Of a DNA stretch of 16,054 nt, positions 6,972-15,057 are shown piece by piece. The DNA is from a virus (taxonomy: Duplodnaviria > Heunggongvirae > Uroviricota > Caudoviricetes): positions 1 through 16,054 of the IMG/VR virus record IMGVR_UViG_2703718862_000008. The stretch is one strand, 5' to 3'. Within the stretch, counting starts at the first letter, position 1, and each line of letters opens with the position of its first letter. The notes under the pieces are model-generated. The model saw only the letters and a program-made list of their open reading frames with translations. It did not search any database and was not told the origin of the DNA. Both the position numbers and the translations under genes were made by a program.

Positions 6972-7634
6972 TCAGACAAAACCAGCCGCTTTCCGGCGCT
7001 CATATTCCTGTTTCAGTAACTCAATTGGCGTTGGCCCTGGCGGGTGTTTTGGCCCTTCCAGTTGTCGTCGCACTGGCGGAACACTCATGCCGTTACCAAC
7101 ATTCTTTGCCCATTTGGTCAACAGTCGTTCTGCAAGTCGTTTCAGCTCACTTTCAGTCATCTGACGTTCAATCCCTCTGGTGCGCATCTCGAGGCAAATG
7201 TGGTACAGCACAGGCTGTGGCCACGGGTATTTATCACTCCCGTCGTATCGCCAGGATTCATTGCGCCAGCGCCGGTACTCTTCCATCACTGCATCCACCG
7301 TAAGACCAAATGGATTTGCCCCACTCTCCGAAATCAGTGCAACAAACTCAGCCAGGTCCGGGGGCCACGTTTCACCCGCCCGGCAGCGGTCCATGCACTG
7401 ACGACAGACCAGACGGATTTGCTGTTCAGTCATCGCACCAATCTGGGCAATCCAGAGCTTCGAAGGTGCGGCCCCGTTCTTCTGAGTCCAGCGGTTCGAA
7501 TACACCTCCCCCATAAGCTCCCACAGCTTCCAGGCCGTTTCCGTTGCTGATAAATCCGTTTTCACGTTCCCACTGTTCGCGTGATGCCCGGATTTCCTGA
7601 ACTGCCCGTGATGCCGTGCCACCTGATGCTGCAT
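6972..7634 (-). CDS. replication protein P-like (helicase loader), start uncertain
   Basis: C-terminal half (YPWPQPVLYHICLEMRTRGIERQMTESELKRLAERLL) resembles lambda P as I recall it (YPWKSNAHYWLVTNLYQNMRANALTDAELRRKAADEL). The full ORF overlaps the O-like gene by 209 nt; alternative ATGs are at 7514 and 7433. Confidence 0.55.
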   Translation of the reverse strand: MQHQVARHHGQFRKSGHHANSGNVKTDLSATETAWKLWELMGEVYSNRWTQKNGAAPSKLWIAQIGAMTEQQIRLVCRQCMDRCRAGETWPPDLAEFVALISESGANPFGLTVDAVMEEYRRWRNESWRYDGSDKYPWPQPVLYHICLEMRTRGIERQMTESELKRLAERLLTKWAKNVGNGMSVPPVRRQLEGPKHPPGPTPIELLKQEYERRKAAGFV

Positions 7635-8439
7635 GGCTTACCCCCTTGCTGACTGGTTTTGCCTGTGCCCTGACGTGCTGCACGTGGCGGGCAAATTTCT
7701 GCTCCCACTGAACCTGCGTGAAAACCTTCCCCTCCGCCATCCAGTAATCCCGGAATGCGGCAAGCTCTGCAGGTGTAAATTCCGGCTCAGGCAGAGCCAT
7801 ACCCCACACAGCTGCCCGTTGTCGAAAATCCGGCGACGGCTGCCAGACAGTGGTCATCGAAAATTTCCCGATCGGTTCGCTCAGGCCGTCCAGGTATTCA
7901 GGTTCGGCTGTCTGCAACGGCGCACCATGCGACTCACTGGTAGGAATACTCTCGCGTTCACGCACGTTATGTGTGGGGTTTAATTCTTTTAGATCTGTAT
8001 CTTTATTAGTTGCTTTTGTGTTTGCGTCATGTTCAAACACAACACCAACATTTGTTTGAACACCTGTTAAATCTCTCTCTTGTTTTGTTTGAACATATGC
8101 TTCCTTTCTGCTTCTTCTGGCCTGAACAGATGCTTTTCCGGCGGCTGATTTTTTGGTCAATTTTTCCCTGACTGATGCCAGATCTTCCTCAATCCGAAGA
8201 TGCACCCATTCATCGCCGTTATCGCAAAAAAACTCCCGCAAGGATGGTTCCACATCAGCCCATCGCTCGTTAGTCAGACGGGAAATTTTTGCCAGCCTGT
8301 TTTTAGGTATTGGTTTCCCTGTTTGCCAGTAATTGAACATCAGCAACAAATACGCACCGTGCTCCTCTGCGGACAAATGCATGGTGTCAGCCAGGTAATC
8401 AGCTATGTACAGTTGCATGTATGGTAATGCGGCCATAAT
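7426..8439 (-). CDS. replication initiation O-like protein: YdaU-type N-terminal domain (family I recall as DUF1376) plus DnaT-like C-terminal domain (337 aa)
   Basis: ATG at 8437-8439 with GAGG 5 nt upstream (the track start at 8490 is TTG). N-terminus MAALPYMQLYIADYLADTMHLSAEEHGAYLLLMFNYWQ; C-terminal segment FSMTTVWQPSPDF...YWMAEGKVFTQVQWEQKFARH resembles the DnaT C-terminus from memory. Confidence 0.65.
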   Translation of the reverse strand: MMAALPYMQLYIADYLADTMHLSAEEHGAYLLLMFNYWQTGKPIPKNRLAKISRLTNERWADVEPSLREFFCDNGDEWVHLRIEEDLASVREKLTKKSAAGKASVQARRSRKEAYVQTKQERDLTGVQTNVGVVFEHDANTKATNKDTDLKELNPTHNVRERESIPTSESHGAPLQTAEPEYLDGLSEPIGKFSMTTVWQPSPDFRQRAAVWGMALPEPEFTPAELAAFRDYWMAEGKVFTQVQWEQKFARHVQHVRAQAKPVSKGVSHAASGGTASRAVQEIRASREQWERENGFISNGNGLEAVGAYGGGVFEPLDSEERGRTFEALDCPDWCDD

Positions 8440-8522
8440 TGCCTCATCTTGTGACGAACCATCCTCTGGTGATATTCTGTGATTCCCCAATCAACAGAAT
8501 CAGCAGGGGTATGGCATAAATA

Positions 8523-8960
8523 TCAATGCACCACAACAGACTCGCCGGATGACCCGCCGTCGCTGAAATACGCTTTCCGGTAAACTGCCTGGACTGCATC
8601 ATCATGCGCATCAATTGCCGTGCTCAACGCTTCCTGGGCCGCCAGTAATGCACGGCGCTCAACAGTGTCAAAAATACTGAGGTGATAACGCAGTTCACGC
8701 GGAAGAACAGTCAGGATAGCTGGAATTAGTGCCTGAATTTTTTCAACAGCATCAGGCGTATCCTTTTCAAGCCAGCGAAAAATATTTTGTATGTTCAATC
8801 CAATACCCTCTGTCGTAGAGGTGTCATGCATTGGTGGATAAGTCATTTCAAGCTGAAAATATGCCGTCGCTATATCATCAGCGATTTTTTTGCGCCCTAC
8901 CCTCGGATAAAGCAGCCACGCATTCATCGCCATGCGGATGTGCTCATGCTTGATTTTCAT
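8523..8960 (-). CDS. ydaT: YdaT-like (CII-like) protein, 145 aa
   Basis: ATG at 8958-8960 overlaps the cro-like stop (ATGA). MKIKHEHI... N-terminus and the position after the Cro-like gene match the Rac ydaS-ydaT arrangement as I recall it. Confidence 0.6.
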   Translation of the reverse strand: MKIKHEHIRMAMNAWLLYPRVGRKKIADDIATAYFQLEMTYPPMHDTSTTEGIGLNIQNIFRWLEKDTPDAVEKIQALIPAILTVLPRELRYHLSIFDTVERRALLAAQEALSTAIDAHDDAVQAVYRKAYFSDGGSSGESVVVH

Positions 8961-9217
8961 GAATCAACTCCCGCCGCTGCTTGTGCGTTAGCCTGATACT
9001 CAACAGGTAAACCATCGGTTGGATTAGGGTATTTATCAGGGCGCAATTCATGCGGAGTTACTCCCCAGTCAAGCGCCTCACATGCTGGTATAACCTCCTC
9101 CGCTGGCACTCGTTTTTTAAACCACCCACTTATGGTTTGCGGTGTTTTACCAAGACGACGCCCTAATTCTGATTGGCTCATTATTGACAGGATTTTCACT
9201 TGAGTACTTTTTTGCAT
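8957..9217 (-). CDS. Cro-like HTH regulator (YdaS/DicC family), 86 aa
   Basis: ATG at 9215-9217 with GGAGGG 5 nt upstream. HTH QSELGRRLGKTPQTISGW and a conserved ELRPD segment. Divergent from the repressor gene. Confidence 0.7.
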   Translation of the reverse strand: MQKSTQVKILSIMSQSELGRRLGKTPQTISGWFKKRVPAEEVIPACEALDWGVTPHELRPDKYPNPTDGLPVEYQANAQAAAGVDS

Positions 9218-9247
9218 GTTTCCCTCCGAACTTTACGATGACACCGA

Positions 9248-9290
9248 TAATTACAAATTTAAACTTAAATTTCAACTTCTATTTGTAATG
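9248..9290. promoter_or_regulatory. OR-like operator/divergent promoter region between the Cro-like and repressor genes
   Basis: AT-rich inverted repeats AATTACAAATTTAA (9249-9262) and ATTTGTAA (9281-9288). Candidate - strand promoter: -35 TTGAAA (9275-9270), 16-nt spacer, -10 TAATTA (9253-9248). Confidence 0.5.
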
Positions 9291-9343
9291 CCACTTATCA
9301 ATTTTTTCTGTAGGATCGCGGAACTAGTTTACGAGGGGTGGTG

Positions 9344-9736
9344 ATGATCTTTGTAAAACGCCTTCAGCAGGTGTTGCAGGAATTGAATATAAACCAGTCA
9401 GAGCTGGGAAGACGTCTTGGTGTAAAACCCCAATCCGTGCAAGGTTGGTTGAAAGGCGTGATGCCAAGAATGGATAAACTGGAAAAATTAGCAGAGCTCT
9501 CACAACATCCCGTCCATTGGTTCTTTATGGAAGAAGAAACTCTCGGCGATAAAATGGCTGTATCCAGTAATGACAACCAACCGCAACTTACAGAACAACA
9601 ACGAAAAATCATATCGCTTTTAGATGAGTTACCTCAAAGCGACGCAGAGCAGATCATTCGTGATATGGAGCAAAAACGCGATTTCTATAAACGGAAACTT
9701 GAAGAGTTACTGCGGCAGAAAAACAAAACTGCCTGA
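9344..9736 (+). CDS. DicA-like prophage repressor (HTH_XRE N-terminus, helical C-terminal domain, no peptidase domain), 130 aa
   Basis: ATG at 9344 with GAGGGG 5 nt upstream (the track start at 9338 is GTG). HTH QSELGRRLGVKPQSVQGWLKG; C-terminal segment resembles DicA from memory. Confidence 0.7.
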   Translation: MIFVKRLQQVLQELNINQSELGRRLGVKPQSVQGWLKGVMPRMDKLEKLAELSQHPVHWFFMEEETLGDKMAVSSNDNQPQLTEQQRKIISLLDELPQSDAEQIIRDMEQKRDFYKRKLEELLRQKNKTA

Positions 9737-9782: not shown

Positions 9783-10142
9783 TTATAATCCAACCAGGCT
9801 TTCCAGGGGGATACCAAATTGATTATGAAGACGGCGAATCATTGGTAACGTAAGGCTTCTGGTACCATTCAACACCTCATAAACCCGATTTTTTTTCCCA
9901 ATTGCGGGTTCCAAATCTTTCACAGTCAGCCCCTGCTGTTCCATGCGAAATCTTATAGCTTCAATTGGGGATGGTGGCTCAATGGGATAATGTTTTTTTT
10001 CATATTCCTCTATTAGCAAACACATCACCTCAAAAAAATCCCCCTCAGGCGTGTCAATTTCGGGCTCATTGTCGAACATGGGTTCAACAGCACGCAACGC
10101 GGCTTCATAATCTTGCTCTGTACGAATAGGTTTGATGTTCAT
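9783..10142 (-). CDS. higA: HigA-like HTH antitoxin (119 aa)
   Basis: ATG at 10140-10142, 2 nt after the higB stop. C-terminal HTH IGKKNRVYEVLNGTRSLTLPMIRRLHNQFGIP resembles E. coli HigA (YgjM) as recalled. Toxin-first order is typical of higBA. Confidence 0.7.
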   Translation of the reverse strand: MNIKPIRTEQDYEAALRAVEPMFDNEPEIDTPEGDFFEVMCLLIEEYEKKHYPIEPPSPIEAIRFRMEQQGLTVKDLEPAIGKKNRVYEVLNGTRSLTLPMIRRLHNQFGIPLESLVGL

Positions 10143-10144
10143 GC

Positions 10145-10447
10145 TTACTCCAGTTCGATGGTATCAGCATCAATAGCATCGTATTCCTTGTGGTTTCCGA
10201 TGAATTTAACAAATACCCATCCTCGCTGATACGCAATTGCAACAATTAAACGGTAATGATTACCTTTTATGTTGAATACCACGCGCCGGTTTTTCAATAT
10301 ACTGGCCGTTCGGTATTGTACCTTTATGTCTGCTGGGCTTTTCCAGTCAGCTTTTGCCGCCTCATCCACCCATGCCCTTAGCGGTTGTTCTGCATCAGGA
10401 TTCTCCGCCCAAAAATCCCTGAGTGTTTTAACTGAGATAATCTTCAT
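10145..10447 (-). CDS. higB: HigB-family (RelE-fold) mRNA interferase toxin, 100 aa
   Basis: ATG at 10445-10447 (the track ORF extends upstream to 10492). MKIISVKTLRDF...RRVVFNIKGNHYRLIVAIAYQRGWVFVKFIGNHKEYD aligns with K-12 HigB ...HYVFNVGGNELRVVAMVFFESQKCYIREVMTHKEYD from memory. Confidence 0.75.
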   Translation of the reverse strand: MKIISVKTLRDFWAENPDAEQPLRAWVDEAAKADWKSPADIKVQYRTASILKNRRVVFNIKGNHYRLIVAIAYQRGWVFVKFIGNHKEYDAIDADTIELE

Positions 10448-10453
10448 AACTGT

Positions 10454-10482
10454 ATAGTAGTCCCATTTTGGGACTGATGCAA
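10454..10482 (-). promoter_or_regulatory. candidate higBA promoter with operator palindrome in the spacer
   Basis: - strand: -35 TTGCAT (10482-10477), 17-nt spacer containing the palindrome AGTCCCAAAATGGGACT (10475-10459), -10 TACTAT (10459-10454). The ATG is 6 nt downstream, implying a near-leaderless mRNA. Confidence 0.4.
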
Positions 10483-10490
10483 CAGCTCGC

Positions 10491-10544
10491 AATTACAAAT
10501 TTAATAATAAACATGTTGACCAGTTAAATTTTAATTTGTAAATT
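10491..10544 (+). promoter_or_regulatory. OL-like operator and early-left promoter
   Basis: AATTACAAATTTAA (10491-10504) and ATTTGTAA (10534-10541) bracket -35 TTGACC (10516-10521), 17-nt spacer, -10 TAAATT (10539-10544) on the + strand. Confidence 0.45.
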
Positions 10545-10723
10545 GTATCCATAAACCCACCCCGCCCCACAGAACGCAGGGCAATACTTCGAGTTACCCG
10601 GCAGTGGTCAGGGGTTAAGTAGCCAGCCCGAGGCGTAAGAACATGACGGCAGGGTTCAACTTTAATAACTATGCAGCAGGTTTTTGTTCCGCTCCCCCGG
10701 CGTTAAGGGGAAATGAGGTCAGC

Positions 10724-14814: not shown

Positions 14815-15057
14815 ATGTACGAATTAACTCTATCTCCAGCAGAGATTAAAGAGATCACGAAATACGAGCGATACACAAAACAGCAACACCAGTTAAGACT
14901 GCACGGCATCCCATTTGTAATCGGTCCTAAAAACGAACCAATAGTTCTACGCAGGGATATTCCACACGGACTGACAACGATGCCAAAAACATCTGAACTG
15001 GTTTCTGCTGAACCCGATTTTGAGGCACTGAACAATGGGAAGACCAAGAAAAAATAA
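14815..15057 (+). CDS. putative excisionase / small DNA-binding protein (80 aa)
   Basis: Immediately upstream of int and overlapping its start by 23 nt, the typical xis position. Not similar to lambda Xis by eye; the SD is weak. Confidence 0.4.
   Translation: MYELTLSPAEIKEITKYERYTKQQHQLRLHGIPFVIGPKNEPIVLRRDIPHGLTTMPKTSELVSAEPDFEALNNGKTKKK

Follow-up and report, generated by a model that had tools for sequence, protein, structure and literature searches.

That a phage repressor and its Cro carry homologous helix-turn-helix (HTH) motifs and work on common operators is textbook material dating from 434 and P22; in 434, repressor and Cro occupy the same operators but differ in their preference among the sites. 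In the HTH register taken from lambda, 434 and P22, positions 1–8 form the first helix and positions 12–20 the recognition helix, and in 434 and lambda the glutamine at position 1 touches the DNA backbone. In prophage CP-933P, the DNase I footprints of the CI-like PaaR2 and the Cro-like YdaS overlap on the intergenic and PL-like regions while the two proteins have opposite promoter preferences (PMC8630535), and YdaT acts as a CII analogue (PMC9986795). In Escherichia coli K-12, RacR is essential because it represses ydaS/ydaT (PMC5700373).

Here we analysed the control region of a lambdoid E. coli prophage in a 16,054-nt stretch of viral DNA (IMG/VR record IMGVR_UViG_2703718862_000008), hereafter called the window, in which a repressor and a divergently transcribed Cro-like protein carry the same nine-residue segment, QSELGRRLG.

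A lambdoid control region

Both ORFs of the predicted divergent pair, a DicA-like repressor and a Cro-like protein, are present and belong to a lambdoid prophage, with 126 bp between them (9218–9343). The gene order is repressor, Cro-like, CII-like YdaT, O-like and P-like, and the features of the region are as follows.

6972–7634, (-) strand: lambda P-like ORF (ORF and Pfam)
7426–8490, (-) strand: ORF with DUF1376 and DnaT domain (ORF and Pfam)
8523–8960, (-) strand: CII-like gene of the YdaT family, 3' of the Cro-like gene (Pfam YdaT_toxin, PHROG 163)
8950–8967: YdaT box TTGATT-N6-AATCAA over the ydaT-like start codon, an exact copy read from the sequence
8957–9217, (-) strand: Cro-like gene, 86 aa, YdaS family, leading the rightward-type early operon
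9344–9736, (+) strand: repressor gene, 130 aa, with an N-terminal XRE/HTH_3 domain, a disordered linker and a C-terminal helical hairpin
9783–10492, (-) strand: HigA/HigB pair (ORFs and Pfam)

The Cro-like gene occupies the position of a YdaS-type Cro, first in the operon divergent from the repressor and followed by the YdaT/CII-like gene and the replication genes. PHROG 163, which contains the YdaT-family protein, is described as 'CII-like transcriptional activator', and the YdaT box was defined as in PMC9986795 and PMC11879457.

In a search of complete E. coli genomes, a 1.3-kb stretch around the shared segment was found at 99% identity or more in 138 records of the collection, and with at least 80% coverage in 135 genomes. 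One genome with an identical locus is that of E. coli O26 RM10386, whose RefSeq annotation agrees with the divergent ORFs. Its annotated neighbours are an exonuclease, DicB, YdfC, HigB/HigA, an HTH protein, the divergent 'transcriptional regulator', a YdaT-family protein, a DUF1376 protein and replication protein P, with RusA further on. A nucleotide search of the phage collection returned no phage with this immunity region, only partial ydaT matches; related phages were reached by protein search instead. Homologues of both proteins are adjacent in Salmonella, Sodalis, Arsenophonus, Serratia and others, and the Sodalis and Salmonella loci have the same gene order as the window.

The repressor and the Cro-like protein

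The repressor scored 36.2 bits against Pfam HTH_3 (cut-off 23). It aligned with the NCBIfam DicA subfamily NF007257 over residues 3–129 of 130, and because its 49.9 bits lie below the cut-off of 101, we classify it by sequence as a DicA relative over its full length, not as a member of the DicA subfamily. Pfam detected no Peptidase_S24 domain in the repressor, and its C-terminus is modelled as a helical hairpin, so the protein is not a repressor of the self-cleaving lambda CI/LexA type. The AlphaFold2 (AF2) model, built from an alignment of homologues, has a pLDDT of about 88–90 over the first 60 residues and contains helices at residues 2–14, 18–25, 29–36, 43–53 and 57–61, followed by the disordered linker and the hairpin. 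Foldseek matched this model to operator-bound P22 c2 (2r1j; rmsd 1.2 Å over 61 residues), to 434 Cro at 31% identity and to SinR.

The Cro-like protein falls into the YdaS family, with 34.6 bits against Pfam YdaS_toxin (PF15943, cut-off 30) over residues 14–64, and also exceeds the threshold of HTH_3 (24.9 bits, cut-off 23). It was assigned to PHROG 35, and its homologues in phages SPN3UB and Gifsy-1/2 are labelled Cro; the NCBIfam search gave no family for the Cro-like or the YdaT-like protein. Its AF2 model, likewise built from a homologue alignment, has a mean pLDDT of 89.8 and helices at residues 3–12, 15–22, 26–34, 39–48 and 55–58. The all-alpha Cro Xfaso1 (PDB 3bd1) is its best PDB match by sequence (E = 0.0046) and the best fold match of the model (TM 0.80, 34% identity). 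The likeness extends past the HTH into the VPAE...ELRPD part, but Xfaso1 Cro comes from a Xylella host and has another HTH sequence. The model also matched the fold of the YdaS N-domain of CP-933P (8co2).

Similarity of the two HTHs

The original prediction that both proteins contain QSELGRRLG held with exactly its limits, residues 15–23 of the Cro-like protein and 18–26 of the repressor. The codons of the segment and of the predicted recognition helices lie at the following positions.

9116–9142, (-) strand: predicted recognition helix PQTISGWFK, Cro-like residues 26–34 (AF2 helix; coordinates counted from the ORF start at 9217)
9149–9175, (-) strand: QSELGRRLG, Cro-like residues 15–23 (helix 2 and turn glycine)
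9395–9421, (+) strand: QSELGRRLG, repressor residues 18–26 (helix 2 and turn glycine)
9428–9451, (+) strand: predicted recognition helix PQSVQGWL, repressor residues 29–36 (AF2 helix 29–36)

Pairwise alignment, which had been proposed as a check, confirmed the similarity at the protein level, with 15 identities in 26 residues by BLASTP (E = 2e-9), and profile–profile comparison of the two families with hhalign gave 97.6% probability over 29 columns. Because of these two results, we take the resemblance of the HTHs to be real homology, far beyond chance. Significant similarity between repressor and Cro over the DNA-binding domain, as in 434, was thus seen by both methods. It is limited to 26–29 residues around the HTH, and none was detected outside it. 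Over the 20-residue HTH, 14 positions are identical, comprising all nine of helix 2 and 5 of the 11 that follow. The shared nucleotide core CGTCTTGGT was also recovered. These 9 nt, at nt 61–69 of the Cro-like gene (9149–9157, reverse complement) and nt 70–78 of the repressor gene (9413–9421), are the longest exact match between the two genes. By our own calculation, genes of 261 and 393 nt are expected to share about 0.4 such 9-nt matches by chance in any register, and the CGTCTTGGT run therefore adds no weight beyond the protein identity.

The shared segment in the fold

The original prediction implied that the 9-mer is the DNA-reading part of both proteins, a view contradicted by the AF2 models, in both of which QSELGRRL lies in helix 2, outside the recognition helix, and the final glycine is the first residue of the turn. 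We compared both sequences with the canonical HTH pattern (small residue at position 5, glycine at 9, hydrophobic residue at 15), and the 20-residue register fits by direct reading, with Q1, G5, G9, V/I15 and W18 in both. The XRE/HTH_3 fold is further indicated by the five-helix models and by the matches to P22 c2, 434 Cro and SinR. From the predicted models and the alignment to the canonical HTH, QSELGRRLG is assigned as the scaffold (positioning) helix 2, positions 1–8, together with turn glycine 9, and not as the reading helix. Judging from 434 and lambda, helix 2 of both window proteins probably still adds to their affinity for DNA. A location outside the recognition helix is the outcome that the original prediction had itself named beforehand as speaking against it.

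The predicted recognition helices, PQTISGWFK in the Cro-like protein and PQSVQGWL in the repressor, are alike but not identical. Canonical positions 12, 13, 17 and 18 are the same (P, Q, G and W) while 11, 14, 15 and 16 differ, the base contacts of these helices being putative. In an alignment of 17 homologues of the repressor, V27–L36 is invariant except for G34; the 9-mer varies among homologues (G22A, L25M, G26D/N).

Recognition helices and intergenic repeats

The clearest evidence on what sets the sites read comes from sister immunity types. Types A (the window), B and C keep Q[SA]EL[GA]RR[LVI]G in both partners, and type B includes the viable Salmonella phage SPN3UB. Their recognition helices read KPQSVQGW (repressor) and TPQTISGW (Cro) in type A, [TK][SA]QSVNGW and RAQTVNGW in type B, and NSQ[TS]VS.W in repressor and Cro alike in type C. 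The motif TT[GA][CT]AA[AT]T occurs in one to four copies in every type A, A2 and E locus, against a background of 0.03 per 125 nt, and is absent from the intergenic regions of types B and C. Conversely, ATCGAWW occurs in two to four copies in seven of the eight type B loci and once in one type D locus, and is absent from the intergenic regions of types A, A2, C and E. These operator-like repeats appear to follow the recognition helix, and the 9-mer would not set the sites read, because it is near-constant in types with different helices 3 and different repeats. In the sister types, repressor and Cro share 15–16 of 22 HTH residues. With their near-constant helix 2, co-varying recognition helices and type-specific repeats, these types could be used as a small panel for testing HTH specificity rules and for annotating the pairs of 'helix-turn-helix domain-containing protein' in E. 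coli prophages.

Partner similarity across related modules

A scan of one genome per species yielded 80 loci with a YdaS-type gene. At 54 of them the HTHs of the Cro-like protein and of the divergent upstream repressor could both be registered, giving 23 HTH types among which partners were permuted; relatedness is not fully removed by this test, and the p values are indicative. In the turn and helix 3, true partners were identical at 4.26 of 11 positions and non-partners at 3.55 (p = 0.0017). The corresponding values for the 9-mer were 2.91 and 2.66 of 9 (p = 0.11). When the permutations were confined to the window's clade (six types), helix 3 gave p = 0.011 and the 9-mer p = 0.89; the respective values in the other clade were p = 0.018 and p = 0.61. 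Partner-specific similarity was found only in the turn and helix 3 and none in the 9-mer, a result that is indicative, as kinship is partly uncorrected. In the window pair the recognition region is identical at 5 of 11 positions and the true partner ranks 6th of the 23 repressor types; shared specificity of this pair is therefore plausible at most. Together, the AF2 models, the permutation tests and the comparison of motifs with types rule out the 9-mer as a specificity determinant.

The 9-mer changes independently in orthologous repressor/Cro pairs. The repressor reads QSELGRRLN in Sodalis and QSELGRRLD in S. diarizonae, Arsenophonus combines a Cro with QSELGRK[LF]G and a repressor with QSELARRMG, and in one Serratia locus (L004) a Cro with QSELGRRLG faces its own repressor with QSEMARRVG. 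Concerted evolution of the 9-mer is ruled out by this independent change.

Promoters and candidate operators

Promoter-like elements and repeats of the control region are listed below.

9247–9275, (-) strand: PR-like promoter of the Cro-like gene, from a consensus scan only (TTGAAA, 17-nt spacer, AATTAT, TG upstream)
9250–9262, (+) strand: candidate operator ATTACAAATTTAA, overlapping the PR-like -10 and containing ATTACAAAT at 9250–9258
9281–9289, (-) strand: candidate operator ATTACAAAT just upstream of the PR-like -35, inverted relative to the copy at 9250
9296–9312, (+) strand: degenerate copy (TATCAATTTTTTCTGTA) of a TACA-N9-TGTA palindrome, overlapping a possible repressor-promoter -10 (TGTAGGAT)
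10492–10544, (+) strand: OL/PL-like region beyond the HigBA genes (TTGACC at 10516, 17-nt spacer, TAAATT ending at 10544)
10492–10500: candidate operator ATTACAAAT, exact, flanking the PL-like promoter
10534–10542: candidate operator TTTACAAAT, inverted and with one mismatch, flanking the PL-like promoter on the other side

The window contains four exact copies of ATTACAAAT against 0.23 expected, a number reached in none of 200 shuffles, and the copies concentrate around both promoters. Positions 9250 and 10492 carry the same 13-mer, ATTACAAATTTAA, and the PR-like -35 and -10 regions and the motif positions are conserved in orthologous loci. From centre to centre, the arms are 31 bp apart in the right region and 42 bp apart in the left, which corresponds to roughly three and four turns of the helix. 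With cores of 9–13 bp, the candidate operators are short and lack the usual form of a 14–18 bp palindrome. A reading as 17–18 bp palindromes was considered and rejected, since the ATTACAAAT copies do not combine as neighbouring half-sites. Each 12–13 bp quasi-palindrome may be a full site, or distant arms may be bridged at 31 and 42 bp.

The TACA-N9-TGTA palindrome adjoins the repressor gene in related loci and is conserved. It does not match TTGATT-N6-AATCAA and was rejected as a YdaT box. A LexA box was considered as well, but that box is CTGT-N8-ACAG, with the opposite arm order.

A proposed immunity switch

We are fairly confident that the window holds the immunity switch of a lambdoid, Rac/Qin-like E. 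coli prophage, in which the two proteins share a scaffold helix and the next helix reads the operators. In this switch, a DicA-like CI-analogue repressor and a YdaS-family Cro analogue would be transcribed divergently from the 126-bp control region, both carrying the same ancient XRE-type HTH fold. Helix 2 would position the recognition helix and, like its counterparts in 434 and lambda, would touch the DNA backbone; it would be kept by purifying selection in both protein families across a clade of Enterobacterales prophage modules. Bases would be read by helix 3, which has the sequence PQSVQGWL in the repressor and PQTISGWFK in the Cro-like protein. Because these helices agree at positions 12, 13, 17 and 18 and differ at 11, 14, 15 and 16, both proteins would recognise one operator family with different site preferences. 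The candidate common operators are the ATTACAAAT-type repeats flanking the PR-like and PL-like promoters, with putative roles.

The claim that both proteins read the same half-sites therefore stands in part. Common operators are likely from CI/Cro logic, the PaaR2/YdaS precedent and the ATTACAAAT repeats, but the 9-mer on which the claim had been based is not the reading head. By analogy with these systems, both window proteins likely act on the same operators. The sequences, the homology, the model-based helix assignment, the comparative statistics and the motif distribution are results of this analysis, whereas DNA binding by the two proteins, their use of common operators and the functions of the sites are inferred.

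Alternative explanations

An older origin of the shared helix is conceivable, namely the transfer or duplication of a helix 2–helix 3 cassette between repressor and Cro at the root of a single clade of Enterobacterales immunity modules, with synonymous sites saturated since. In clade I the helix-2 segment of Cro matches that of the repressor at 5.78 of 9 positions, as closely as within the two families (5.73 and 5.93), while the match to the same family in clade II is only 3.09 and 2.87, and the confinement of detectable similarity to the 26–29 residues around the HTH points the same way. We nevertheless consider such an event unlikely. The Pfam HTH_3 consensus is s-q-e-e-L-A-e-k-l-g, to which the 9-mer is close, and both families may have retained an ancestral state that was lost in clade II; selection imposed on both by common operators would produce this pattern too, and there is no recoverable nucleotide trace. 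The clade I pattern is accounted for just as well by an ancestral helix 2 that stayed close to the consensus, or by shared constraint. The sequel, in which new immunity types would have arisen after the cassette move by matched changes of the recognition helix on an unchanged helix-2 scaffold, is as doubtful as the event itself. If true, it would make the clade a natural series for the HTH-to-operator code, with types A–E each having its own intergenic repeat.

A toxin/antitoxin-like module, in which an essential repressor holds off a YdaS toxin and the shared HTH is unrelated to any lysis–lysogeny switch, is suggested by the Pfam names YdaS_toxin and YdaT_toxin and was first proposed for RacR/YdaS, RacR being the essential repressor of ydaS/ydaT in K-12 (PMC5700373). 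We regard it as very unlikely here, since the genes are arranged as in a lambdoid immunity and replication region, homologues occupy the cro position in the viable phages SPN3UB and Gifsy, and in CP-933P YdaS binds operators like Cro and YdaT is CII-like (PMC8630535, PMC9986795); for Rac as well, a letter argues for Cro/CII-like roles (PMC5917428).

The suggestion that the HTH segment was duplicated or exchanged within the locus found no nucleotide support, codon sharing being at chance level. In the nucleotide alignment, also proposed as a check, 20 of the 27 nt of the 9-mer are identical, but five of its nine codons carry synonymous differences, and in two of these five (TTA/CTG and CGT/AGA) two positions are different. 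Over the 26-codon alignment, 50 of 78 nt are identical, and the codon is the same for 8 of the 15 identical residues, where 5.7 would be expected given local codon usage; across 53 partner pairs, 181 shared codons were observed and 190.6 expected. No recent or recurrent DNA exchange is visible, and the synonymous sites have diverged. That a recent duplication or gene conversion within the locus copied the segment between the repressor and Cro genes, as the unbroken run of nine identical residues and the three consecutive identical codons CGT CTT GGT might suggest, is thus contradicted by the synonymous differences, the nucleotide identities, the codon sharing in the window and in the 53 pairs, and the independent drift of the orthologous pairs in Sodalis, S. 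diarizonae and Arsenophonus, and is extremely improbable.

Comparison with known switches

The layout of the proposed immunity switch is that of the Rac, Qin and CP-933P immunity regions, with a CI analogue, a divergent Cro analogue, a CII analogue and replication genes. Rac and Qin are cryptic lambdoid prophage switches of E. coli K-12; the window Cro-like protein aligns with Rac YdaS, and the window repressor aligns with DicA over its full length. The pairs DicA/DicC and RacR/YdaS had been proposed for comparison with the window pair. DicA and DicC of K-12 have little in common. The HTHs of RacR and YdaS do resemble each other, but their common part is the recognition helix, PPS[VI]..WIK, and not helix 2.

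The PaaR2/YdaS/YdaT region of CP-933P from E. coli O157:H7 has the architecture of the window, a CI analogue, a divergent YdaS-family Cro analogue and a YdaT CII analogue, and both regions have a toxin–antitoxin pair on the repressor side and a PL-like second operator region. The YdaT box TTGATT-N6-AATCAA at the ydaT start of CP-933P (PMC9986795) has an exact copy in the window. The immunity specificity differs, the CP-933P operators having the half-site GTTTAGTAA and the window the repeated motif ATTACAAAT. CP-933P YdaS is too distant to be reached by sequence search from the window Cro-like protein and was matched by fold only (8co2). The toxin–antitoxin pair is HigB/HigA-like and on the opposite strand in the window, whereas paaA2-parE2 lies in the repressor operon of CP-933P.

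Like the window, phage 434 has a divergent repressor and Cro with homologous five-helix XRE-type domains. Their HTH 20-mers, checked against PDB sequences, are identical at 11 of 20 positions, 6 of 9 in helix 2 and 5 of 11 after it. Together with the 15–16 of 22 residues shared in the sister types, this removes the ground for calling the window pairing unusually explicit. The identity in 434 extends into the beginning of the recognition helix (QQSI), whereas in the window it forms an unbroken run within helix 2, and P-Q...G-W is all that the recognition helices have in common. In addition, the Cro of the window is of the YdaS family with a conserved TPHELRPD C-terminal part, and the C-terminus of the repressor is DicA-like and helical. 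As YdaS-type Cro proteins are already characterised in CP-933P, the locus offers little that is new as a discovery, and what is gained is a correction, the identical 9-mer being, from the models, a scaffold and not a specificity determinant. The locus is an uncharacterised but ordinary CI/Cro-type switch of a well-understood kind, like that of phage 434.

A second control region resembling OL/PL

Beyond the promoter region of the Cro-like gene, the window contains an OL/PL-like second control region, which is listed here with the other elements described below.

8950-8967: exact YdaT box, TTGATT-TTCATG-AATCAA
9296-9312: degenerate copy of the ACA-N9-TGT palindrome
9783-10492, minus strand: HigB-toxin/HigA-like HTH pair
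10490-10545: OL/PL-like second control region
14913-14921, minus strand: fourth exact copy of ATTACAAAT

The PL-like promoter within 10490-10545 lies on the plus strand (TTGACC, 17-nt spacer, TAAATT) and is flanked on both sides, by ATTACAAAT and by the inverted TTTACAAAT. The first 13 nt of the region, ATTACAAATTTAA, are the same as the candidate operator copy at 9250-9262, and the two arms are separated by 42 bp, compared with 31 bp in the right region, the PR-like promoter region of the Cro-like gene. The further copy of ATTACAAAT at 14913-14921 is close to the DUF4224/integrase end of the prophage, distant from both promoter regions, and may be a chance occurrence. The HigB/HigA-like pair, whose location is moron-like, separates the repressor gene from the PL-like promoter; a Salmonella relative (L086) has the same pair.

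Repressor residues and palindromes in related loci

Residue 26 of the DicA-like repressor (window 9419-9421) is a glycine, the one that canonically occupies the turn at HTH position 9. Asp or Asn replaces it in Salmonella and Sodalis orthologues (P0104, P0108 and P0109), while their recognition helix is invariant. A palindrome of 15-17 bp, ACA-N9-TGT and often TACAGA-N5-TCTGTA, adjoins the repressor gene, upstream of cro and about 83-97 nt from its start, in 14 of the 25 loci of the window's clade (L002, L004, L005, L007, L008, L010, L011, L014, L016, L017, L020, L025, L026 and L074), against 2.3% of background windows. It is common to immunity types whose recognition helices differ, and comparison with the YdaT box gave no match. 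The degenerate copy in the window overlaps a possible -10 of the repressor promoter. Two Methylophilaceae loci with distant YdaS-type modules, L027 and L028, carry the palindrome ACAACAAT.GGTTGT in two copies 24 bp apart, upstream of cro and 32-74 nt from its start, which makes a textbook pair of the OR1/OR2-like kind.

Comparison with Rac and CP-933P

The YdaT-like gene has its start codon (CAT at 8958-8960, ATG on the minus strand) inside the spacer of the YdaT box at 8950-8967, and this spacer also overlaps the point where the Cro-like gene stops. Such an arrangement has been reported for the Rac and CP-933P prophages too (PMC11879457, PMC9986795). The placement of the HigB/HigA-like pair is reminiscent of CP-933P, in which the paaA2-parE2 pair adjoins PaaR2.
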